From positions 1 through 64,000 of the IMG/VR virus record IMGVR_UViG_3300042261_000762: a stretch of DNA of 64,000 bases. One strand, given 5' to 3'. Under the pieces are notes generated by a model. That model saw nothing but the letters and a program-made list of their open reading frames with translations, was not told where the DNA came from and ran no database searches. The first letter of the stretch is position 1. Each line of letters opens with the position of its first letter. The stretch is from a virus. Positions 7,494-52,478 of this stretch are shown here, piece by piece. Both the position numbers and the translations under genes were made by a program.

Positions 7494-7543
7494 AATAATT
7501 TTTTTCTTTTTGTTTATATATTAATATAAAAATGTCATTTTTG

Positions 7544-10035: not shown

Positions 10036-10141
10036 AATTTTTTTATTCCAAAATAACATCGTATCTTTGTATCATAAATCAGGAAATGATAAAAATATTA
10101 ATAATAGGATTTATAATTTATTTCTTATTCTTTAGAAATAA

Positions 10142-10178
10142 AAATGGAAAAAATTGACTTTTTTTATAAAATATATAA
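10142..10178 (+). promoter_or_regulatory. conserved promoter block of tRNA array 1
   Basis: AAATGGAAAAAATTGAC-T-run-AATATATAA, repeated before all four leaders. Confidence 0.7.
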
Positions 10179-10226: not shown

Positions 10227-10322
10227 ATGACTTACACCAGTAAACATAGTAAACATTCATCCTTTAGCTCAAAGTGGTTTACCACATTCGGGGTTGAAAC
10301 GGAATTGCTATGTGTAAGCTGA
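10227..10322 (+). CDS. attenuator leader peptide 1 MTYTSKHSKHSSFSSKWFTTFGVETELLCVS
   Basis: 31-codon ORF; codons 5-18 are only S/K/H/F/W; contains antiterminator strand TTCGGGGTT (10287-10295). Confidence 0.85.
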   Translation: MTYTSKHSKHSSFSSKWFTTFGVETELLCVS

Positions 10323-10341
10323 TAATAACATAGTATAACGG

Positions 10342-10379
10342 AAAACCCCGAACTCAAAAAGTTTGGGGTTTTTTATTTT
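10342..10379 (+). terminator. attenuator terminator of array 1
   Basis: AAAACCCCGAAC-tcaaaaa-GTTTGGGGTTTT plus U tract. Confidence 0.85.
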
Positions 10380-10400
10380 ATAGTTCTTTAATATATTCAT

Positions 10401-10483
10401 ACGGCAGCAGGCATTGGTGAGCCAAACAGTCTCCAAAACTGCGACCTGAAAGGGTCCTAAGCGTTCGATTCGTTTCTGCCGTG
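10401..10483 (+). tRNA. tRNA-Trp(CCA), atypical long variable arm
   Basis: Acceptor ACGGCAG/CTGCCGT, loop ct-CCA-aa, extra arm GACC-tgaaag-GGTC. Confidence 0.75.
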
Positions 10484-10566
10484 CTAAGTTCTTTGAAATA
10501 TTGTAGTGTTCAATTCTTCTAAAAATGATTCGAACAATTTAATATATAAATAAAAAAATATATTAT

Positions 10567-11115
10567 ATGAATCAAATTAAAGAAGATATTTTAAGATTGA
10601 GAAATGAAGGAAAATCTTATTCTGAAATCCAGAAAGATTTGAATTGTTCGAAAGGAACTATTTCTTACTATTGTGGCGAAGGTCAAAAAGAAAAGAATAG
10701 GGATAGAACAAGAAAATTGAGAGAAGAAAACATAATGATTAAAAAGATTGATAATTTCAAATCGTTGAGAAATTTTAAAAATATAAAAGAAAGTTTGAGA
10801 AAATTTCAAAAAAGAGATGGAAATGATTACAATAAGAATATAAAAGAAACTTTTAATTGGAGGGATGTTTTAGATAAATTTGGAGAAAATACTTTTTGTT
10901 ACTTATGTGGAGAAGAGGTTAACTTATTTGAAGATACTTATAGTTTCGATCACATAATACCTCAAAGTAGAGGAGGTGATAATAGTTTAGATAATTTGGG
11001 TATCACTATGAAGAAAATAAATGACATGAAAACTGATATGACTCCCGATGAACTAGTGGAAATGTGTATCAAAATCTTAAAATTTAACAATTACAGTGTA
11101 GAAAAACTATTATAG
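10567..11115 (+). CDS. HNH homing endonuclease with N-terminal HTH
   Basis: CYLC...DHIIPQSRGG.N.LDN...N; HTH shared with 28889..29458. Confidence 0.85.
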   Translation: MNQIKEDILRLRNEGKSYSEIQKDLNCSKGTISYYCGEGQKEKNRDRTRKLREENIMIKKIDNFKSLRNFKNIKESLRKFQKRDGNDYNKNIKETFNWRDVLDKFGENTFCYLCGEEVNLFEDTYSFDHIIPQSRGGDNSLDNLGITMKKINDMKTDMTPDELVEMCIKILKFNNYSVEKLL

Positions 11116-11148
11116 TTCATTGACATATTGAAAACCATAAAAGATTAA

Positions 11149-11489
11149 AAGATTAGTTAAGTACCCTATCACATCCCCAATGCTGGGATCTTATAGGCGA
11201 AAATTCAGACTGTAAAGAAAGGCAGTTACTACTGGGCGGGACATAACTACCCGTTTGCGTTATAGTACAGCTAAGGCTATAATGAACTACTCTGCCATCT
11301 TCGGATGCAGGAGGAAGTCTATATTAAGTGTGTAATAACGAACACATCGGTATAGAGAGTCAAAGAAGTTAGTAATCTATGTTTAGATTGATAAATGCGT
11401 TCTATGGTAGATTAGAAGGGTTCGAATCCCTTACGGATTTATTTGACTATACTTGGGACCTTGAAAAGAGGTAGACGTAGGCTAATCTT
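11149..11489 (+). ncRNA. unidentified structured RNA of about 340 nt with an internal T-arm module
   Basis: Ends pair (AAGATTAGTT/GGCTAATCTT); many hairpins (CTG-taaagaaagg-CAG, CATC-ttcg-GATG, AAGGG-ttcgaat-CCCTT); no ORF; follows a boxA. Confidence 0.6.
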
Positions 11490-11496
11490 AATTTAT

Positions 11497-11574
11497 TGTG
11501 GATAAATAGAGCTCAGATCCGATACGCAACGGACACGCCTAGACCTCGGACAGGTTCCGACTCATTTATCCACA
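11497..11574 (+). ncRNA. small structured RNA hairpin
   Basis: TGTGGATAAAT.GAG / CTCATTTATCCACA terminal stem enclosing GC-rich hairpins. Confidence 0.45.
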
Positions 11575-11584
11575 TTTTATACAT

Positions 11585-11660
11585 GGTGTTCGTAGCTTAA
11601 TTGGCATAGAGCACGTCGTTGTGACCGACGCCGGTGAGGGTTCAAATCCCTTCGAACACA
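11585..11660 (+). tRNA. tRNA-His(GTG)
   Basis: G-1, cloverleaf, CGTCG-ttGTGac-CGACG. Confidence 0.9.
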
Positions 11661-11665
11661 CATAT

Positions 11666-11753
11666 GGGAAAGACATCCCTTAGGATAGGGAGATAATCTG
11701 AAAGAGATTATAATCAGCAAAAAACCAATTTGGTTCGAATCCAATCTTTCCCG
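11666..11753 (+). tRNA. degenerate tRNA (Phe GAA-like)
   Basis: Acceptor GGGAAAG/CTTTCCC, T loop TTCGAAT, irregular ctGAAag loop and long variable region. Confidence 0.5.
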
Positions 11754-11759
11754 CTACAT

Positions 11760-11833
11760 GGTGCTATTAGCTCAATCGGTAGAGCGCATGCCTGTGGAGC
11801 ATGAGGCAGTGGGATCGAAACCCACATAGCACC
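11760..11833 (+). tRNA. tRNA-His(GTG)
   Basis: G-1:C73, CATGC-ctGTGga-GCATG. Confidence 0.9.
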
Positions 11834-11899
11834 CAAAAACCGAATGGACTGTTATACTTTCATAGAGTCGGGTAATCAGATGATCGTAGAAAGTAAAAT

Positions 11900-11972
11900 G
11901 GTGCGGTAGCTCAGTAGGTAGAGCAAAGGACTGAAAATCCTTGTGTCGGGGGTTCAATTCCCTCTCGCACCA
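11900..11972 (+). tRNA. tRNA-Phe(GAA)
   Basis: Canonical cloverleaf, AAGGA-ctGAAaa-TCCTT. Confidence 0.95.
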
Positions 11973-11978
11973 CAAAAT

Positions 11979-12051
11979 GACTTCGTAGCTCAGTTGGTAG
12001 AGCACCACACTTTTAATGTGGGAGTCCTGGGTTCGAGTCCCAGCGGGGTCA
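11979..12051 (+). tRNA. tRNA-Lys(TTT)
   Basis: CCACA-ctTTTaa-TGTGG. Confidence 0.95.
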
Positions 12052-12056
12052 CAAAA

Positions 12057-12129
12057 GGATTCTAAGCTAATCTGGTGAAAGCGTAAGTCTGAAGAACTTA
12101 AGAGATTGGTTCGAAACCAATAGAATCCA
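12057..12129 (+). tRNA. tRNA-Phe(GAA)
   Basis: TAAGT-ctGAAga-ACTTA; acceptor GGATTCT/AGAATCC. Confidence 0.85.
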
Positions 12130-12133
12130 CTAA

Positions 12134-12260
12134 AACGGGAGACGGGGGTTCGATTCCCCCCAATCACATATACTCGACGCGTTCTATGGACAGAGTAATG
12201 AGAGTTCGATTCTCTCACGGGCTGAGGTTGATTGTGGCGTAATGGTAGCGTTCCCGCGTT
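12134..12260 (+). ncRNA. circularly permuted tRNA mimic (YrlA-like topology) with a second tRNA-like module nested inside
   Basis: T arm first (GGGG-ttcgatt-CCCC), then CAATCA ... TGATTG acceptor pairing, then D arm GCGTAATGGTAGCG; ends pair AACGGGAG/TTCCCGCGTT. Confidence 0.55.
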
Positions 12261-12343
12261 GGAGACACCCAATGGGAGTGGTTAGGCGTCTCGAAAGCGT
12301 TGAAGTCTGAAAAGATGTGAAGGTTCGACTCCTTCTGTCTCCG
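12261..12343 (+). tRNA. tRNA-Ser(CGA)
   Basis: ctCGAaa loop, long variable arm, G73. Confidence 0.85.
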
Positions 12344-12349
12344 CAAAAT

Positions 12350-12439
12350 GGAAGATAAACCGAACAGGTTAGTCGGCACCGCCTGGAAAGCGAGTGGCTC
12401 TGGGTCAACTGGGGTGAGTTTCGAATACTCTGTCTTCCG
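12350..12439 (+). tRNA. tRNA-Ser(GGA)
   Basis: ctGGAaa loop, long variable arm. Confidence 0.85.
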
Positions 12440-12456
12440 CAATCTGTCTTCCGCAA
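12429..12456 (+). repeat. 14-bp tandem duplication of the tRNA-Ser 3' end
   Basis: TCTGTCTTCCGCAA twice, immediately before the nuclease start codon. Confidence 0.9.
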
Positions 12457-13012
12457 GTGGAAAATAATCATATTTGTCCGAAGTGTGGATTTTATATTAA
12501 TAATAGCATTGACAAACATATAAACTATTGTAAAGGAAAAGGTCCTAGGAGAAGAATTAAGAGAAGAGAAGGAGGTCAAAAGTGGTTACTTGGAAAATCC
12601 TACGATGAATTATATGGAACTGAAAAGTCTAAAGAAATAAGAGAAAAAATATCCAATAATCTAATAGGTAAACCAACAGGAATATGTTCAACTGAAGAAA
12701 GAGAATTAGAAAGAAGAAAAAAAATTAGCGAGAAAATAATAGAAAGATATAAAAACGGTTGGGAAGTTAAATGTGGAAGATGTAAAAAAATAGATTATTA
12801 TAGTGATATAGCAGGAGATATAAAAGTAGATGGAAATTGGGAGTTGGAAGTAGCTAAGTTTTTATGTAGAAGATTGGAATAAATTTATTGAAGTAAAGGG
12901 TTACAAAACTAAATTAGATTATATAAAATGGGAACAATTTAAAGAGAATCTTGAAATATGGGATTCTAATAAATTGAGAGAGTTAGGAATAAAAGCAAAA
13001 TGGCTTAAATAA
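12457..13012 (+). pseudogene. homing endonuclease (NUMOD3-like repeats plus PD-(D/E)xK domain) with internal deletion/frameshift
   Basis: ORF stops at 12882; another frame continues FYVEDWNKFIEVKGYKTKLD...WLK, and the usual YxPD segment is missing. Confidence 0.7.
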
Positions 13013-13014
13013 AT

Positions 13015-13103
13015 GGAGAGTAAACCTAAGCAGTTCTTAGGGCCTGTCTGCTAAACAGAGTGTTCGATTGATATCGAATGTGGGGCGGCACCACTGCTCT
13101 CCG
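13015..13103 (+). tRNA. tRNA-Ser(GCT)
   Basis: CTGT-ctGCTaa-ACAG, long variable arm; atypical T loop. Confidence 0.8.
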
Positions 13104-13113
13104 CAATAATAAT

Positions 13114-13205
13114 GGAAAGAAAACCGATCGGGGTGTCGGCACCGCCTGGAAAGCGAGTGGCTCTGGGTCAACTGGGGTGGGTTTCAATTACTCTTCTTTC
13201 CGCCA
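13114..13205 (+). tRNA. tRNA-Ser(GGA), encoded CCA
   Basis: Central part identical to 12350..12439. Confidence 0.85.
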
Positions 13206-13210
13206 CCAAC

Positions 13211-13296
13211 GGTAGATGATCTGGAGCTGCCTCCAGCCCTGTCTTGAAAACAGTGGGTACGTGAAAGCGTATAGGGATCGACACCTTCTTCTACCG
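13211..13296 (+). tRNA. tRNA-Ser(TGA)
   Basis: CTGT-ctTGAaa-ACAG, variable arm TACG-tgaaag-CGTA. Confidence 0.8.
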
Positions 13297-13375
13297 CTCG
13301 TGTCGCAGATATCGACAGAAACCCCGAAAGGGTGACTAAAAATTCCTATCCGTGCAACTGGGAGGTTGCAAAAAA

Positions 13376-13452
13376 GCGTTCGTAGCTCAGTTGGTAGATT
13401 AAGCACCACTCTTTTAAAGTGGGGGTCGTCGGTTCGAGCCCGACCGGACGCA
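13376..13452 (+). tRNA. tRNA-Lys(TTT)
   Basis: CCACT-ctTTTaa-AGTGG. Confidence 0.9.
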
Positions 13453-13457
13453 CAAAA

Positions 13458-13530
13458 GACCTCGTAGCTCAATTGGCAGAGCTCTTGTCTCTTAAACAAG
13501 AGGTTGTGGGTTCGATTCCCACCGGGGTCA
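13458..13530 (+). tRNA. tRNA-Lys(CTT)
   Basis: CTTGT-ctCTTaa-ACAAG. Confidence 0.95.
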
Positions 13531-13599
13531 CTCGAGGAGACTGTTTGTTATTTTCATAGGACCGCAGATAACACGGGAAGAGTAGAAAATTACATTTAA

Positions 13600-13672
13600 G
13601 GGTTCATAGGTCAATTGGTTAAACTAGTAGACTCTTAATCTACGGCTCTGGGTTCGAATCCCAGTGAACCCA
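13600..13672 (+). tRNA. tRNA-Lys(CTT)
   Basis: GTAGA-ctCTTaa-TCTAC. Confidence 0.9.
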
Positions 13673-13689
13673 CAAAAAATAATATAGAA

Positions 13690-14409
13690 ATGAAATATCT
13701 TATAGGCATACAACCAACAGGCAAACTCCATATAGGTAACTATCTTGGATGCTTAGCCAAGGGACTTAGACTTCAAAAATCTGGTCACGATGTTACTTTT
13801 TTAATAGCTAATTATCATTCAATGACTACAGGTTCATATACTGATATAACAGAAAAAGAATTAAAAAGATTAGGATGTAAAAATGTAAAACGCCAAACAC
13901 CAGAATATACTGAAAAGTTCTTTGAATTGTGTTGTAAAATGAATATAGGACAGCTTCTTAAAATGCCACAATATAAGGATAAAAAAGAAAAGGTTGAATA
14001 TGATTTAGGATTACTTTTATATCCAGTGCTTATGGCAGCAGATATTATAATAAATGATCCAGATGTTATTATAATAGGAGCAGATCAAGTTGCACACATT
14101 GAATTGACAAATGATATAGTAAAAAGAATAGGAATAGATAAACATTTTGAATATGAATATGGTGATGTAGACAAGATAATGTCTTTAATAGATCCAACCA
14201 TTAAAATGTCAAAATCATCTGGAGAAAAACACGTTCTTTATATATTCGATGAAGATTATGTAGCGAAACTTAAAAAAGCCAATTCCAACGAAGAAGGATT
14301 GAATAATCTAAGAAAAATCGGAGATTACTTCAATGTTGAAAGAAATGATAGTAATTTGAAATATAAATTGGATATAGCGAAAGTTTTAATTGATGAATTT
14401 AATCAATAG
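13690..14409 (+). CDS. trpS: tryptophanyl-tRNA synthetase, compact (239 aa)
   Basis: GIQPTGKLHIGNYLG, YPVLMAADI, GADQ..H.ELT, KIMSL.DP..KMSKS. Confidence 0.92.
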   Translation: MKYLIGIQPTGKLHIGNYLGCLAKGLRLQKSGHDVTFLIANYHSMTTGSYTDITEKELKRLGCKNVKRQTPEYTEKFFELCCKMNIGQLLKMPQYKDKKEKVEYDLGLLLYPVLMAADIIINDPDVIIIGADQVAHIELTNDIVKRIGIDKHFEYEYGDVDKIMSLIDPTIKMSKSSGEKHVLYIFDEDYVAKLKKANSNEEGLNNLRKIGDYFNVERNDSNLKYKLDIAKVLIDEFNQ

Positions 14410-14480
14410 GGATCATAGGTTAATTGGTAAACTAGTAGACTTTTAATCTACGGCTCCGGGTTCGACCCCCGGTGATCCCA
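14409..14480 (+). tRNA. tRNA-Lys(TTT)
   Basis: GTAGA-ctTTTaa-TCTAC; starts on the last base of the trpS stop codon. Confidence 0.9.
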
Positions 14481-14485
14481 CACAC

Positions 14486-14557
14486 ACGTCTATGGTATAA
14501 TGCGTAGCACAAATGCCTCCAAAACATTTAGTCAGGGTTCGAATCCTTGTAGGCGTA
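14486..14557 (+). tRNA. tRNA-Trp(CCA)
   Basis: ctCCAaa loop, acceptor ACGTCTA/TAGGCGT. Confidence 0.85.
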
Positions 14558-14580
14558 CAAAATATAAAACAATATAAAAA

Positions 14581-15201
14581 ATGGACATAGATAAACAAGT
14601 TAGAGGAACTAGAATTATTCTGGAAGAAGCAAAGGAAAGAAGAATAATTCTTAATAAACTCATAGATATTGCAAATGATTATGGTTTTCAAGAAATCACT
14701 TTACCTAGTTTAGAATTATCTGAAATTTACGTAGATAAAGCGGGTGAAGAAATTCTAAATCAAATGTACACATTTAAAGACAAAGGAGATAGAAATCTAT
14801 GTCTTAGACCAGAAGGAACAGCAACAATTCAATTATTGGCTAATAAATATTGGAAAACGCAAAAAGATATTAAACTTTGGTATTTTGAAAAATGTTGGAG
14901 ATATGAAAGACCACAATCGGGAAGATATAGAGAGTTTTATCAATTTGGTGTTGAATGGTTAAATCCAAGAGAAGATGTAACTCCTACATTGATTGAAATG
15001 GCTAAAAAGATGATAGAAACTAAAACAAATGAATATACTATTTCTGAATCTGTTAAAAGAGGATTATCATATTACACAGGAGGAGTTGGTTTTGAAATTT
15101 CTGTAGATAAATTAGGTGCTCAAAAACAAGTTTGCGGAGGAGGATCATATAAAGAAGGAATAGGATTTGCTTTGGGGTTCGATAGATTAATGTTATGTTA
15201 A
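14581..15201 (+). CDS. hisS: histidyl-tRNA synthetase, catalytic core only (206 aa)
   Basis: MYTFKDKGDRNLCLRPEGTA, RYERPQSGRYREFYQFG, RGLSYYTG, GFALGFDRL; no C-terminal anticodon-binding domain. Confidence 0.88.
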   Translation: MDIDKQVRGTRIILEEAKERRIILNKLIDIANDYGFQEITLPSLELSEIYVDKAGEEILNQMYTFKDKGDRNLCLRPEGTATIQLLANKYWKTQKDIKLWYFEKCWRYERPQSGRYREFYQFGVEWLNPREDVTPTLIEMAKKMIETKTNEYTISESVKRGLSYYTGGVGFEISVDKLGAQKQVCGGGSYKEGIGFALGFDRLMLC

Positions 15202-15206
15202 AGTGT

Positions 15207-15240
15207 AAAAATGCTAGATTATCATCTAGCATTTTTTTTA
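15207..15240 (+). terminator. intrinsic terminator closing array 1
   Basis: AAAATGCTAGAT-tatc-ATCTAGCATTTT plus T run. Confidence 0.8.
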
Positions 15241-25098: not shown

Positions 25099-26658
25099 AT
25101 GAAAATGAAAAAGTTTGTAGTTCCGATGTTTCCTTATCCCAGTGGTAATATTCATATGGGTCATATGAGAAATTACACTATATCTGATGCTATAGCTAGA
25201 TATTGGAGAAATAAAGGATATGAGGTTTGTCACCCTATAGGGTGGGATTCTTTTGGTATGCCAGCGGAAAACGCTGCAATTAAGAATAACATTCATCCAA
25301 AAGAATGGACAGACGCCAATATTAATAATATGAGAGATCAAATGAAGAGAATGAATATGTCATTTGATTGGGATAAAGAAGTCTCTACTTGTGAAATGGA
25401 TTATTGGAAATGGGAACAGAAATTTTTCATAGATGCGTGGGAAAAGGGATTTATAGAGAAGAAAATTGGTATAGTAAATTGGGATCCAGTTGATAAAACT
25501 GTAATGGCTTCCAATCAAGTTATTGACGGAAAAGGTTGGAGATCTGGAGCTAAGATTGAGAAAAAAGAAATGGTTCAATATTATTTCAAAACGACTATGT
25601 TTGCTGATGAAATGTATGAATCAATAAAAGATATTGAAAAAGATTGGCCTGAAATTATCACTAAACAACAGAAACAATTTATTAAGAACGGTATAAGAGA
25701 AGGCGATGAAGTTAGACCTTTTACAGATTGGTGTATTTCACGTCAGAGATATTGGGGAACTCCTATCCCTATGATAAATTGTCATGTTTGCGGAACAATT
25801 CCAAATAAAGATATTCCTGTAGTTCCTCCTTATGACGTTAAATTTGATGGACATGGAAATCCAATGGATAACCATCCAACATGGAAACATATTAAGTGCC
25901 ATAAATGTGGTGGTGATGCTGAGAAAGAGACTGACACAATGGACACTTTTGTTCAGTCAAGTTGGTATTTTATAAGATACATTTCTGAATTTAACGGGGA
26001 TAAATTCAATTGGGAAGAAATAAAAAGATGGTTCCCAATAGACTATTATATTGGTGGAGCTGAACATTCTACTGGGCATATGATATATGCTAGGTTTTTC
26101 TGGAGAATATTTAAGAAGATGGGTTATATTCCTGAAGAAGTTTCAATTGAACCTTTTGGTAAGGTTATAACACAAGGTATGGTAAAGAAGGATGGTAAGA
26201 AGATGTCTAAAAATTTTGGTAATGGTGTGTCGCCTGATGAAATGGTAGATAAATATGGATCTGATGTTGTGAGAATGTATATAATGTTTGCTGGTCCTCC
26301 AGAGCAAGATTTTGAGTGGATAGATGATAACATATCAGGATGTAGTAGATTTATAAAGAAATTTAGACATGGGTTTGAAAGAACAAAAGATATGGTATAT
26401 GTAGAAAATAAAAAGAATGAAGATTGGGCTAGAAATAGAATTGATATTATTCGTAAAAGAACAAATGAAGTTTATGAAAAAAATTACAAATTCAATACTA
26501 TAGTATCTACAGCAATGGAAACTTTTAATGCCATATCTAAAACAACAGATATAAATATATGGAAAGAAGGGTATGAAGTCATAATGAATGCTATTAGTCC
26601 TATATCTCCTGATGTTTGTAGAGAAATAAGAGACGAATTCCAAAATGGAAATAATTGA
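25099..26658 (+). CDS. leuS: leucyl-tRNA synthetase, minimal (519 aa; no CP1 editing domain, no C-terminal domain)
   Basis: MFPYPSG.IHMGH, GWDSFGMPAENAA, DWCISRQRYWG, DTMDTF..SSWY, KMSK. Confidence 0.95.
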   Translation: MKMKKFVVPMFPYPSGNIHMGHMRNYTISDAIARYWRNKGYEVCHPIGWDSFGMPAENAAIKNNIHPKEWTDANINNMRDQMKRMNMSFDWDKEVSTCEMDYWKWEQKFFIDAWEKGFIEKKIGIVNWDPVDKTVMASNQVIDGKGWRSGAKIEKKEMVQYYFKTTMFADEMYESIKDIEKDWPEIITKQQKQFIKNGIREGDEVRPFTDWCISRQRYWGTPIPMINCHVCGTIPNKDIPVVPPYDVKFDGHGNPMDNHPTWKHIKCHKCGGDAEKETDTMDTFVQSSWYFIRYISEFNGDKFNWEEIKRWFPIDYYIGGAEHSTGHMIYARFFWRIFKKMGYIPEEVSIEPFGKVITQGMVKKDGKKMSKNFGNGVSPDEMVDKYGSDVVRMYIMFAGPPEQDFEWIDDNISGCSRFIKKFRHGFERTKDMVYVENKKNEDWARNRIDIIRKRTNEVYEKNYKFNTIVSTAMETFNAISKTTDINIWKEGYEVIMNAISPISPDVCREIRDEFQNGNN

Positions 26659-26733: not shown

Positions 26734-26922
26734 ATGAATGGAAAAGTAAAATTTTATGATGAAAAAAAGGGATTTGGGTTCATTTTAGAGAATGAAACCG
26801 GCAAAGAATATTTTGCCCACGCAACCGGTTTAATCGACAAGATTACAAAAGATGATGATGTCGAATTTGAGATAATTCAGGGGAAAAAGGGGATGAATGC
26901 TATAGACGTTAAACTAATATAA
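26734..26922 (+). CDS. csp: cold-shock domain protein
   Basis: GKVKFYDEKKGFGFI...FAH. Confidence 0.92.
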   Translation: MNGKVKFYDEKKGFGFILENETGKEYFAHATGLIDKITKDDDVEFEIIQGKKGMNAIDVKLI

Positions 26923-26942
26923 ATCCAGTGAAAAAAAATCCT

Positions 26943-26976
26943 AAAACCCCGACAAAAATCGGGGTTTTGTTTTTTT
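26943..26976 (+). terminator. intrinsic terminator
   Basis: AAAACCCCGA-caaaaa-TCGGGGTTTT plus T run. Confidence 0.85.
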
Positions 26977-27036
26977 AATTCGAATATTAGTCGTATATTT
27001 GTATAGTTAAAAAGTTCATTGAAAAAAAGGATCCAA

Positions 27037-27164
27037 TCCTTGATCGAAGGTCAGCACCGATGGACGCTCCTATCCAGAGCAGCGGTAAGCAGGACTGACA
27101 TGTAGATATAGTGACGTGAGGGCGAAAGAACCCGACTATTCCAACTGGAAAATTGGACAAGGAT
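27037..27164 (+). ncRNA. unidentified structured RNA (about 130 nt)
   Basis: ATCCTTG/CAAGGAT closure, GC-rich interior; lies between promoter+boxA and tRNA-Leu. Confidence 0.45.
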
Positions 27165-27170
27165 ATATAT

Positions 27171-27254
27171 GCCGAGGTGGCGGAACTGGTAGACGCGACG
27201 GACTTAAAATCCGTTGACCGTAAGGTCGTAGGGGTTCGATTCCCCTCCCCGGTA
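27171..27254 (+). tRNA. tRNA-Leu(TAA)
   Basis: Canonical with long variable arm. Confidence 0.95.
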
Positions 27255-27383
27255 CAAGTTAGTTCTTTATTTTATTGATTGTTTTATTCGTGTAGGTCGG
27301 ACTGGACTAGGAGTCGCTACCATAGGTCCACATTGGACATTAGAGAGCCAATGTTATGTCTAAAAACCTAACATGATAAAACT

Positions 27384-29747: not shown

Positions 29748-30664
29748 GACTTTGTTTGGGAAGTTTCTCACCTTCGGGTGGGTAAAGAATAATACATCGC
29801 AAGGTGTAAAAGAGAGGGATGGTCACATACCTCTACCACAATCCTTCGGGAAAGTGGCTCAACCAAACAAGCATCGTCCTACCGTAGCCAACTACGGTCT
29901 TCGATCACCAGTCGGAGATAGGATGTAAGAACGGAACTGGTCCTTTGGAAAGGATAAGTGAGGTAAGCCCCCAGCCGCAAGGTTGGGTAAGGAGCCTCAC
30001 TAATTAGGGAGTGACGCCCCGCCGCCAGTTGGTCAACCGTTCGTTGTCGGAAGGGATAAGGTGTAGTTAATCTGTTCGAGCATACCAACGCAAGGGCTAA
30101 TTAACAGTTCAATAGGTGAAAGGTTTTGAAACTGTAAAAGGGGAATGAACCTGGAGTCTAGAAGAATCGCACAGTAAGGCTAGTAACCTGAAACGTATGT
30201 GTGTGTAGTGCATTTTGTACCTCAAAAGGGTATAGACCACATGAGTGGGCACCACGCGGTGACAAACAGCAAATTTGCTCAGCTGGTAGAGCAATTCTCT
30301 CTTAAAGAATAGGTCGTTGGTTCAAATCCAACATTTGTTTAAAGGAAAGTCCCACTCAACGGTAAGCTGAAAGACGTTTAATTCTTGGCACCGCAAGGTG
30401 AACCAAGAACTCGGAAGGTCCCAAGCTGGAAGAGTTTAGTTGAAAGATGCACCTAATGGTTTAGCGACCATGAACTGCTCGCAAGGCAGGGGGTAATCAG
30501 ATAGCTGAATAGGTTTATCGGTAAAAGTTGAGCCACCAACTCAAAAAGGGCAACGTTGTCGGTAAACAGTCTTGGTGACTGTGGACAAGTTGAGAACCTC
30601 AGAATGGGAATTTTGAGGATAATGCAACAAAGGTATCGACGTCAAGGATGTAGTCTCAGTCCTT
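29748..30664 (+). ncRNA. GOLLD-like giant non-coding RNA containing a tRNA
   Basis: About 900-nt GC-rich stretch with no credible ORF, many GCAA/TTCG-capped hairpins, terminal AAGGA-TGTAGTCTCAG-TCCTT, inside a tRNA array with an embedded tRNA as described for GOLLD. Confidence 0.7.
30268..30340 (+). tRNA. tRNA-Lys(CTT) embedded in the GOLLD-like RNA
   Basis: ATTCT-ctCTTaa-AGAAT; flanked by the GAGTGGG/CCCACTC stem. Confidence 0.8.
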
Positions 30665-49362: not shown

Positions 49363-49605
49363 ATGAGAATAATAGCACAATCTTTACTGTTTATACTCAA
49401 CAAGTGGAATTTATCAATGGATGAATTCAATCCTATTGGTAAATTTTTATGGTATATACCAAATTTTCTAAATAACGTTTTAACACAGATTTTTTATTTC
49501 TGTTTATTCCCGTTTGTCTGTTTGTATTTTTATCTACACGAGAAGTCACAACTATACATTTTAATGTATAAGTTATTTTTAATACTTTTGAAAATTAATC
49601 AATAA
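49363..49605 (+). CDS. small hydrophobic protein
   Basis: ORF track. Confidence 0.5.
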   Translation: MRIIAQSLLFILNKWNLSMDEFNPIGKFLWYIPNFLNNVLTQIFYFCLFPFVCLYFYLHEKSQLYILMYKLFLILLKINQ

Positions 49606-50428
49606 CTCTAATTGGAGCCTGTTTAATGTGGTCTAATTCTGAGAACGGTGGTTTATAAACATGCCATCTTCCTTTTGGATCTAGTAATACTATTTCCTTC
49701 TTACGATCTCCTGGTTCTTTCATTATAACATCAGATACAAGGAATCTATCCTTGAATTTATATCCTCTTCTCATTTCATTTCCAATCCCTTCAGGAGTCA
49801 TTATTATAGTTTTATTTAGAAGTTGATCTTTTACTAATTTTATTATTTGATTATCAGTCATTCTTCCGAAATCCTGTAGAGAAAACGAAACAGTATTATC
49901 TTCTCCTTGTTCTTCCCATTCTTCTTCACCATACGGATCTTCTTCATCGTGATTAGCTTCTTCTTTGCCATCCTCATTTTCTAAGACTCTTAAAAATCTT
50001 CTACATCTAGCCAATCCCTCTTGTTTTTTATGATTTCTAGCTAATTTATCTGGGTTCCTCATTATATTCTCTATAACTACTTTAATATCTTCCGCTAAAT
50101 CCGCGTAGTTATTTTCGGCATACTCTTGAGCCATGTGATCAACTAGGGTTTTAAGATCTTCGTCAGACATTTTATCCATAGCTTTGTTTGTCAAATCATG
50201 CATATTATAAAGAAGACCTAATTTTTTGGATCTTGCTATAAATATATCTAATTCTCTAAAGACTCCTCTCATCGGTTTCGACCAGAAAAATAATGCTTTT
50301 AATACTCCTAATAAAGCATGTGCTTTAGCAAAACTATATTCGAGTTTGACTCTTCTACCAAATCTTTTAACATCTTTCCAATTTAATTCTTCATTTACAA
50401 ACTCATCGTATCCTTTAATATTGTTCAT
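49595..50428 (-). CDS. putative virion-internal protein (CTS-like start, DPYGEEEW)
   Basis: MNNIKGYDEFVNE. Confidence 0.75.
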   Translation of the reverse strand: MNNIKGYDEFVNEELNWKDVKRFGRRVKLEYSFAKAHALLGVLKALFFWSKPMRGVFRELDIFIARSKKLGLLYNMHDLTNKAMDKMSDEDLKTLVDHMAQEYAENNYADLAEDIKVVIENIMRNPDKLARNHKKQEGLARCRRFLRVLENEDGKEEANHDEEDPYGEEEWEEQGEDNTVSFSLQDFGRMTDNQIIKLVKDQLLNKTIIMTPEGIGNEMRRGYKFKDRFLVSDVIMKEPGDRKKEIVLLDPKGRWHVYKPPFSELDHIKQAPIRVID

Positions 50429-50735: not shown

Positions 50736-51404
50736 TCAATCCATTGGAATAGATCCTAATGGATCCATTAAAAAATATCCATCATTCCAGTTTTTAGTAA
50801 AATCGTTCCATTCCTTGTTAGGATCATTTACACGATGACGATATGATCTGACATGATGCATCTTATTTTTAGATAAACCTGTTCCTTTACAAAATCTACA
50901 TTTTCCTTTTCCTTCTGGATCTCTTCCAGTCCCATCGCAATATTCACACACTCCATTTAAGCTACCCTGTACTCTCTTTTTACCTTCACTTGTCATAACA
51001 GAATCTTGTTCTACATTATTTACATTATCTTTAGTTCCAAAATTAATTTTAACATATTTATAATATTTATTAACAATATCCTGAGCTGTTCTTTTAGAAT
51101 CTTTAGAATTATCTACCATTCTCTTAACTTCTGAAGCTTTCTCTGCTCCTAAATTAAAGAAAGAATTACAAACCTTATCTATATCTTGATCATTGGCATT
51201 AGGATTCTTTTTCAAAAGCATAGGTTTAAGAATAATTTTCATATGTTCTTGTATTTGTTGAAACTTATTTTCACTTCTTATATAGTCTGGATTATTAGAC
51301 ATATCATCTGATGTTACGCCCACTTCTTGTCTATTCATGGGCCATTCATTAGAATATGTTTGTTCTAGAACAAATTTGTCGAATTTTTTTATAAGTTGGC
51401 TCAT
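50736..51404 (-). CDS. hypothetical protein with a DnaJ-type CxxCxGxG zinc finger
   Basis: CEYCDGTG...CRFCKGTG; CTS-like start. Confidence 0.75.
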   Translation of the reverse strand: MSQLIKKFDKFVLEQTYSNEWPMNRQEVGVTSDDMSNNPDYIRSENKFQQIQEHMKIILKPMLLKKNPNANDQDIDKVCNSFFNLGAEKASEVKRMVDNSKDSKRTAQDIVNKYYKYVKINFGTKDNVNNVEQDSVMTSEGKKRVQGSLNGVCEYCDGTGRDPEGKGKCRFCKGTGLSKNKMHHVRSYRHRVNDPNKEWNDFTKNWNDGYFLMDPLGSIPMD

Positions 51405-51461
51405 TTAATTGTTCATATTTTATGATATATATAAAAAACTGAAAATCGTTTTTTAATATAT

Positions 51462-52478
51462 ATGTGCATGATAAGAAAATTTGAGTTATTCGAGTCCAAA
51501 GAACCATTTAATCCAAATATACATGAAGGAGATAGAATAATAATAACCAATGGAAAACATAAAAATCAAACTGGAGTGGTAATATTTGTGGAATCTCCAG
51601 AAGATTGTGGATTTATCGTAAACGATGTTGAAGTTAGAATGGATTATACTGAAAAGGAAATAGGGTTTAAATTTTCAGATATCGAAAAATTAGATCCAAT
51701 CGTTAATGTTACATCGGAAGACCCATACGGTGAAGAAGATTATAGAAACGATCCATGGGAAACATTTAGATATATAGAATACATAAGAGAAAACGAACTT
51801 AGGCTTGATGGTAAGCATGGATTCTTTATGTTCTTAAAACTCATAGACGATATGAAGATGCATTTTATTAAGACAAATCATTTTCTTAACGTTGGTAAAT
51901 ATCAATATTTCTTTACAACAGAAGCAATAAGAAGAAAAGATGAATTTATGGCATATTTCAAAGATTCTTTGTCTCTTAAAGTTACTTGTAGTACTGCTTT
52001 AAGAATAAAAGATGAAAGATTATCTTTTTATTTCGGTGTTAAAGGAAATAAATTGGAATATGGATTCCACGACGACATGAAAAGAGATATTTATAAGACT
52101 GGAATATTTGATATAAATACAAGATATTTAAGAAGTTTAAAATCTTATAAATGTTTAGTTCTTATCGAGAATATATTAAAATATTCTAACATATCTAATT
52201 TGAATCTTCTACAAGAAATTAAATCGCATTTTAAAGGGTGGTATGAAGGAAAAGGTAATGTATTAATATTGAATGAAAACATGATTAGAAAAACTCTTAA
52301 AAGAGAAGATATACATGATGATGCTAAAGAATCTGTAGCTTTATTACAAAAGTATGAAAAATGGTGTGAGAAATTTAAGTGGTGTAATAAAGTATATTAT
52401 TATATAGATAATGAGGAAGAGAATGAAGTAGATTTTTATATTAAAATAAAACCTAAAAAGAATGTTGAAGAAGTTTGA
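51462..52478 (+). CDS. KOW-motif protein with DPYGEE
   Basis: GDRIIITNGKHKNQTGVV. Confidence 0.75.
   Translation: MCMIRKFELFESKEPFNPNIHEGDRIIITNGKHKNQTGVVIFVESPEDCGFIVNDVEVRMDYTEKEIGFKFSDIEKLDPIVNVTSEDPYGEEDYRNDPWETFRYIEYIRENELRLDGKHGFFMFLKLIDDMKMHFIKTNHFLNVGKYQYFFTTEAIRRKDEFMAYFKDSLSLKVTCSTALRIKDERLSFYFGVKGNKLEYGFHDDMKRDIYKTGIFDINTRYLRSLKSYKCLVLIENILKYSNISNLNLLQEIKSHFKGWYEGKGNVLILNENMIRKTLKREDIHDDAKESVALLQKYEKWCEKFKWCNKVYYYIDNEEENEVDFYIKIKPKKNVEEV

Follow-up and report, generated by a model that had tools for sequence, protein, structure and literature searches.

The locus studied here raises the question of what decides when a large phage makes its own transfer RNAs (tRNAs). It lies in IMG/VR virus record IMGVR_UViG_3300042261_000762, of which we analyzed positions 1 to 64,000 (hereafter the window); these open a single virus contig of 104,107 bp. 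Genes for tRNAs are among the commonest accessory genes of large phages, and to our knowledge the control of their expression is essentially unknown; leader-peptide attenuation is textbook biology of amino-acid biosynthesis. At 10227-15240, a short open reading frame (ORF), termed Leader 1, precedes an operon of tRNA genes for Ser, Lys, His, Phe, and Trp and 2 genes for proteins resembling tryptophanyl- and histidyl-tRNA synthetases (TrpRS and HisRS). Leader 1 is predicted, with a probability that we put at about 0.85, to be a ribosome-mediated (leader-peptide) transcription attenuator of this tRNA/mini-synthetase operon, and the phage would probably make these tRNAs only when ribosomes read the matching codons slowly. 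The original prediction for this DNA had proposed such an attenuator, and our in silico analysis supports it, with its sequence-level predictions borne out and comparative tests across phages in agreement. The parts, the statistics, the co-variation across phages, and the footprint geometry were observed; from these we infer that the promoter is active, that the ORF is translated, that ribosome and polymerase are coupled, and that the unit responds to tRNA supply. The following features were identified in the control region:

10062-10069, plus strand: Bacteroidota-type -7 box (TAnnTTTG class), a candidate host-RNA-polymerase promoter identified by pattern match
10144-10178, plus strand: 35-nucleotide (nt) phage promoter-like motif, common to the window's 4 leaders, of putative promoter function
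10227-10322, plus strand: Leader 1 ORF, with ATG at 10227, TGA at 10320-10322, and 31 sense codons
10239-10280, plus strand: putative sensor run, codons 5-18, all Ser, Lys, His, Phe, or Trp
10263-10298, plus strand: possible 1:2 hairpin (anti-antiterminator), pairing 10263-10270/10291-10298 and 10273-10276/10285-10288, -10.9 kcal/mol, with a putative role
10287-10352, plus strand: antiterminator (2:3), pairing 10287-10295/10344-10352 and 10300-10301/10339-10340, with an inner stem 10306-10313/10328-10335
10340-10379, plus strand: intrinsic terminator (3:4), with a 15-bp stem at 10340-10374 and a T-run from 10369, -19.3 kcal/mol

The 14 successive Ser/Lys/His/Phe/Trp (S/K/H/F/W) codons that the original prediction had placed ahead of a matching operon were found at 10239-10280 and, as it had stated, draw on both Ser families (AGY and UCN) and on both codons for Lys. 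The run comprises 6 Ser, 3 Lys, 2 His, 2 Phe, and 1 Trp codons, and all 14 are readable by anticodons of the array that follows at 10401-14558. This is the longest S/K/H/F/W run across the 6 frames of the contig, for which we computed an expectation of 0.0018 runs of at least 14 codons (all 6 frames); in 60 Markov-1 genomes, the longest such run was 11. The start context of Leader 1 lies at the 54th percentile of the genome's real gene starts and at the 96th percentile among all ATGs, typical of the genome's genes.

The locus holds the parts by which classical attenuators are recognized, namely a short translatable ORF between promoter-like motifs (10062-10178) and the first structural gene, a regulatory codon cluster specific for the regulated function, an intrinsic terminator ahead of that gene, and an antiterminator that uses the terminator 5' arm together with a segment within reach of a translating ribosome. 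The segment 10287-10295, which had been said to pair with the terminator, is the exact complement of 10344-10352 (9 nt), and the nested 6-nt stem 10308-10313/10328-10333 that brackets the TGA is likewise exact. The whole antiterminator consists of 9 + 2 + 8 bp with the stop codon in its apical loop and, at -24.9 kcal/mol, is stronger than the terminator. The possible, weak 1:2 hairpin would join the last sensor codons to segment 2, and its inner 4-bp hairpin lies in a stretch that is invariant across 3 homologues. The terminator ends approximately 22-25 nt upstream of the first tRNA gene (10401), a gap too short for a promoter, and the array would therefore depend on read-through.

The nearest database relatives of the contig are the uncultured phages LR756501 (735 kb) and LR756502 (642 kb), which belong to the Mahaphage clade with predicted hosts in Bacteroidetes (PMC7162821), and the phage carrying Leader 1 probably has a host of the Bacteroidota. 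LR756501 encodes a direct Leader 1 homologue ahead of a syntenic Trp-His-His-Phe-Lys-Ser array, and LR756502 encodes a diverged homologue whose terminator sequence differs. Homologous ORFs occur in LR756501 and Ga0268283; relative to these two, the run arranges its Ser and Phe codons differently but draws on the same 5 amino acids, and 3' of codon 16 all changes map to loops or bulges of the 2:3 structure.

Three further units of the same build were identified ahead of the window's other 3 tRNA arrays, each with the 35-nt promoter-like motif, an ORF of 22-26 codons, and a terminator 5' arm with a complement in the ORF. The leader codons read by each leader's own operon and by the other operons are as follows:

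Leader 1: 16 of 30 codons read by its own operon; 2, 5, and 2 by the others
Leader 2: 10 of 24 codons read by its own operon; 1, 8, and 1 by the others
Leader 3: 14 of 21 codons read by its own operon; 3, 1, and 2 by the others
Leader 4: 12 of 25 codons read by its own operon; 3, 1, and 6 by the others

Each of the 4 leaders is read best by its own operon, and the decoding sets of the 4 operons share 1 codon only. The match extends to synonymous codons, with Ile encoded by ATA ahead of a tRNA-Ile(UAU) and by ATT ahead of a tRNA-Ile(GAU).

We scanned automatically for terminators at most 900 nt upstream of a tRNA gene and preceded by an ORF of 12-60 codons ending just before the terminator, covering this contig, 10 further regions of LR756501 and LR756502, 11 IMG/VR loci, and 50 metagenome loci, and obtained 43 non-redundant leader/terminator/tRNA units. 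The excess of own-operon amino acids in the leaders was 0.253, against 0.043 +/- 0.018 when pairings were shuffled (z 11.8; 0 of 100,000; 43 units), and the pairing test on the first 26 units alone gave z 10.3. An operon of 4 Gln tRNAs is preceded by a leader with 7 consecutive Gln codons, Ser/Arg/Trp operons by leaders made of Ser, Arg, and Trp, and operons with His, Phe, and Trp only by leaders lacking Lys and Ser. Further, where an operon has acquired tRNAs for Asn and Ile, codons for both residues appear in the leader run, and the Ala/Arg/Gly/Pro/Thr/Val operon of LR756501 has a 42-codon leader composed mostly of those residues. Where an amino acid had only some of its isoacceptors supplied, the synonymous leader codons matched the available anticodons in 115 of 168 cases against 81.1 expected from genomic synonymous usage (z 6.1), including 21 of 24 Ile and 32 of 39 Arg codons. 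This synonymous choice points to selection on decoding and not on the peptide. The antiterminator segment also co-varies with the terminator of its unit; each unit's own 2:3 duplex averaged -10.3 kcal/mol vs -7.2 kcal/mol for cross pairings (0 of 50,000 permutations; 43 units).

Equilibrium folding of the full leader was dropped as a model because the terminator wins nearly everywhere in most units and the folds do not discriminate between ribosome positions. Since equilibrium folding favors the terminator, the switch would have to be kinetic. As a kinetic proxy, the transcript was folded up to the terminator loop, before segment 4, with a 28-nt ribosome footprint placed at each codon. Sequestration of the Leader 1 terminator arm stood at approximately 0.6 up to and including codon 16, 0.5 on codon 17, and 0.3 from codon 18 to codon 29, placing the switch at codons 17-18. 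In these folds, a ribosome stalled on the run leaves segment 2 free and a ribosome past the run masks it, as in a classical attenuator. In nearly every unit, the terminator arm was sequestered while the A site lay in the cognate run, and sequestration fell 0-2 codons once the run was over; the codon at which the switch occurred tracked the end of the run (r 0.83, n = 19), with 17 of the 19 units agreeing within 3 codons.

We propose that Leader 1 gates read-through from promoters at approximately 10062-10178 into a 4.8-kb operon with 16-17 tRNA genes and the TrpRS- and HisRS-like proteins. When any matching aminoacyl-tRNA is short, the ribosome would stall in codons 5-16 and leave 10287-10295 free to pair with 10344-10352 as the latter emerges, before 10360-10374 is transcribed; with the antiterminator formed, no terminator would arise, and RNA polymerase would enter the tRNA genes. 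When supply is plentiful, a fast ribosome would occupy or unwind 10287-10313 while 10340-10374 is made, the terminator would form, possibly helped by the weak 1:2 hairpin in the ribosome's wake as in trp, and the transcript would end approximately 25 nt ahead of the first tRNA. The products, tRNAs and 2 synthetase-like proteins, would in turn serve the reading of the sensor codons and close a negative-feedback homeostat for this subset of tRNAs. The sensing of 5 amino acids that had been ascribed to Leader 1 agrees with its codon run, but because the output is tRNAs, the signal is more likely the usable supply of aminoacyl-tRNAs than the amino acids as such. Candidate natural triggers are the codon demand of this A+T-rich phage, host shut-off, and tRNA-cleaving host defense.

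Several observations weigh against an attenuator. The stop codon of Leader 1 lies 25 nt past segment 2, a ribosome waiting there leaves the segment uncovered, and predicted sequestration climbs back to 0.5-0.6 at codons 30-32. The original prediction had a ribosome at the stop melt the antiterminator; this applies to the inner stem (footprint approximately 10305-10332) but not to 10287-10295, which is not covered, and termination under plentiful supply would therefore probably require a ribosome on codons 18-29 or the 1:2 hairpin in its wake. That hairpin is a weak one, with outer pairs that LR756501 does not conserve. The gap between segment 2 and the stop is smaller in the other leaders, abutting in leader 3 and approximately 9-12 nt in leaders 2 and 4. 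With no ribosome present, folding favors the antiterminator (0.63), so an untranslated leader would read through, and the model depends on a transcribing RNA polymerase that obeys intrinsic terminators. Equilibrium folds of the complete leader with a footprint keep the terminator at nearly every ribosome position. On the comparative side, the units entering the permutation tests are partly homologous, 4 of the 5 Ser tRNAs of operon 1 are uncalled at default settings, and Ser codons had no synonymous excess (47 of 83 vs 46.4 expected), which is probably due to under-called Ser tRNAs in the clade.

The same parts could form a real attenuator that senses amino-acid starvation through uncharged tRNA, with the TrpRS- and HisRS-like proteins as the meaningful output and the tRNAs as passengers. 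A stalled ribosome cannot distinguish a missing from an uncharged tRNA, and operons 1 and 2 both hold synthetase-like genes; most units in the relatives, however, consist of tRNA genes without a synthetase, extra tRNA gives no relief of amino-acid starvation, and the leader codons follow the anticodons down to synonymous choice, so we regard this explanation as improbable. Translation of the ORF might instead act not on termination but on the processing or stability of the precursor, for example by governing whether RNase P or RNase E can reach the first tRNA or by protecting the 5' end. Heavy processing of tRNA precursors and the persistence of the terminator hairpin in equilibrium folds would suit such a role. 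Nevertheless, the T-run of the hairpin is canonical, an alternative partner within the ORF co-varies with the hairpin's 5' arm, and the end of the run coincides with the onset of ribosome masking of the partner segment; none of the three is predicted by a processing role, and together they make it very improbable.

Least probable of all is a constitutive or leaky insulating terminator behind an ORF that is fortuitous or encodes a small functional peptide. A+T-rich DNA abounds in small ORFs, and the C-terminal half of the peptide is conserved in 2 close relatives, but distant homologues keep the sensor composition and not the C-terminal peptide, a run of this length has a genome-wide probability of approximately 0.002, and neither the match of synonymous codons to anticodons nor the permutation result (z 11.8) fits a fortuitous or peptide-coding ORF. 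We accordingly retain the leader-peptide attenuator as the preferred explanation of Leader 1.

If Leader 1 and its counterparts are attenuators, phages would gauge decoding speed per codon set and replenish precisely those tRNAs in short supply, which would account for the grouping of tRNA genes by amino acid into operons of their own. Phage tRNAs would be linked to host tRNA-targeting defenses, and the units would offer synthetic biology natural modular multi-input sensors of tRNA availability. A bolder proposal, which we offer tentatively and consider somewhat unlikely, is that the attenuators are damage sensors of the host tRNA pool, in which depletion of a tRNA would stall ribosomes in the matching leader and switch on only that replacement operon. 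Such depletion may be caused by host anticodon nucleases, by other tRNA-depleting defenses, or by the phage's own host shut-off. On that proposal, separately gated and lineage-re-sorted tRNA operons would form an adaptive modular counter-defense and supply circuit, one common across huge phages and shared by the tractable phiCbK/Caulobacter system.

The operon behind Leader 1 contains the following features:

10401-14558, plus strand: tRNA array with 2 Trp, 2 His, 2 (or 3) Phe, 5 Lys, and 5 Ser genes, from ARAGORN, Rfam, and folds
10567-11115, plus strand: HNH endonuclease gene with an N-terminal helix-turn-helix, between tRNA genes of the array
12457-12882, plus strand: ORF of 141 amino acids, inside the array
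13690-14409, plus strand: TrpRS-like protein, 239 amino acids, inside the array
14581-15201, plus strand: HisRS-like catalytic core, 206 amino acids (tRNA-synt_His, E 5e-25), last gene of the operon
15207-15236, plus strand: operon-end terminator, closing the unit 10227-15240

The tRNA content claimed for the operon was largely recovered. The 5 Lys, 2 His, and 2 Trp tRNAs were identified by ARAGORN and Rfam, and the stated 2-3 Phe tRNAs correspond to 2 identified in this way and a weak third Phe-like gene at 11666-11754. Among the 5 Ser tRNAs claimed, the gene at 12261 was called at default settings and those at 12350 and 13114 at relaxed settings, but those at approximately 13015 and 13210 emerged solely from class-II cloverleaf folding, with anticodon loops GCU and UGA. 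Downstream TrpRS and HisRS genes had also been predicted, and a 239-amino-acid TrpRS-like gene and a 206-amino-acid HisRS-like core were found. The latter comprises the catalytic core only, and an anticodon-binding domain was not found in it. A class I leucyl-tRNA synthetase (LeuRS)-like protein of 519 amino acids is encoded at 25099-26658 of the window. All 3 synthetase-like proteins (TrpRS-like, HisRS-like, and LeuRS-like) are minimal, and their charging activity is putative.

The 84-nt tRNA encoded first after the attenuator (10401-10484) is atypical: its anticodon is CCA (Trp), but the variable arm is long and class-II-like and the D stem has 3 bp. This tRNA scores under the Rfam tRNA threshold and has a weak likeness to tRNA-Sec (30 bits), and its Trp identity is putative; LR756501 has an ordinary 72-nt tRNA-Trp at the matching position. 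A G+C-richer stretch of 470 nt (11116-11585) after the HNH gene had no Rfam match and no BLAST match among the fetched loci, and tRNA-like fragments (T-arm-like pieces) were identified at 11344-11441 and 12130-12260. Together, 10567-11585 and 12130-12260 may represent a mobile endonuclease cassette with tRNA debris.

Elsewhere in the window, a full-length GOLLD RNA was identified at 30199-30662 within tRNA operon 3 (Rfam RF02032, 163 bits, E 5e-44), with a tRNA-Lys(CUU) at 30268-30340 nested within it; because it lies inside operon 3, the GOLLD RNA would also fall under the control of leader 3. In the region 26734-27255, an ORF of 62 amino acids with its own terminator (26942-26969) is followed by approximately 200 nt of G+C-richer DNA and by a solitary tRNA-Leu(UAA) (27171-27255), which is not behind a leader ORF.

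The -7 box class found at 10062-10069 also occurs upstream of many homologous leaders in related contigs, and in several leaders, a Bacteroidota -7 box lies further upstream of the 35-nt motif, which suggests tandem promoters. The 35-nt motif was considered as an attenuator-specific marker and rejected because ordinary genes carry it too, at 7537 (minus strand), 54915 (minus strand), and contig position 80026 (plus strand), and in LR756501 ahead of a capsid-region gene and a lipoprotein-like gene. It probably represents a phage-specific general promoter class. The contig has 26-40% G+C, genes without Shine-Dalgarno sequences, and at least 40 tRNA genes. The public DNA sequencing runs containing the stretch are freshwater and lake metagenomes, and no RNA run was listed among the runs that contain it.

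Suppressor-type tRNAs were identified in attenuator-gated arrays of other loci, with anticodon UUA (reading TAA) in IMGVR_UViG_3300049793_000366 (L021) and CUA (reading TAG; called Pyl by ARAGORN) in Ga0102945 and Ga0209953 (L062/L064). In phage phiCbK (JX100813), the hypothetical gene gp083 and an unannotated ORF (49540-49677 and approximately 51305-51440) are each followed by an annotated rho-independent terminator (49745-49769 and 51465-51502) and a block of tRNA genes, and both are enriched in residues of their tRNA blocks. The Phe/Val/Ile/Gln block gives a clear match and the Pro/Lys/Leu/Ser block a partial one, with Ala and Thr abundant as well in the ORF of the latter block. Both look like leader peptides and not proteins, and since phiCbK of Caulobacter has the same build, the design is directly testable there.

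In the literature that we searched, including the paper on huge phages (PMC7162821) and with most subscription journals outside the search, we found no leader-peptide control of tRNA genes in cells or viruses. The closest counterpart in function is the trn operon of Anabaena PCC 7120, a stress-inducible tRNA array under the protein repressor TrcR (PMC8421152, PMC10272220). It resembles operon 1 as a supernumerary tRNA array that is silent until translation is impaired, but it is cellular and TrcR-controlled, and the paper speaks of neither attenuation nor a leader peptide nor a terminator. T-box riboswitches likewise sense a specific tRNA state and switch between terminator and antiterminator before translation-related genes. 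A T-box, however, binds uncharged tRNA directly and has no ORF but conserved sequence features, whereas in Leader 1 the ribosome would be the sensor, and Rfam scans of the window at gathering and E-value thresholds gave no T-box match. No curated leader family scored above its Rfam threshold in the window scans, Thr_leader being the sole family to give a hit, below threshold.

Attenuation of the translation apparatus itself is known from the pheST attenuator of E. coli (pheM leader) and from His-codon leaders upstream of hisS paralogues in bacilli (PMC2965389), and operon 1, with its TrpRS- and HisRS-like genes, is similar in this respect. Those leaders differ from Leader 1 in controlling synthetase genes only, in response to 1 amino acid, with no tRNA genes behind them.

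In its logic, Leader 1 comes closest to the pheST and hisS-paralogue leaders and to the leader-peptide attenuators of amino-acid biosynthesis, which include the multivalent thrL (Thr/Ile) and ilvL of ilvGMEDA (Ile/Val/Leu) and the single-amino-acid trpL, hisL, leuL, and pheL. The resemblance to Thr_leader (RF00506) lies in architecture and not in sequence homology, as Rfam scored 10228-10377 at only 23.4 bits (gathering threshold 55, E 0.4). Like thrL and ilvL, Leader 1 has a short ORF with a regulatory codon run between promoter and first gene, its ORF overlaps an alternative partner of the terminator 5' arm such that the ribosome position would decide the structure, and a single leader would sense several amino acids. 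The pheL leader-peptide attenuator (PMC3082878) belongs to the enterobacterial amino-acid leaders, from which Leader 1 differs in being a phage element, in its predicted sensing of 5 amino acids, and in having tRNA genes and not biosynthetic enzymes as its output. Unlike in those leaders, the sensor codons of Leader 1 are the decoding set of the very tRNAs that it is predicted to regulate, and the loop would close on the tRNA pool.

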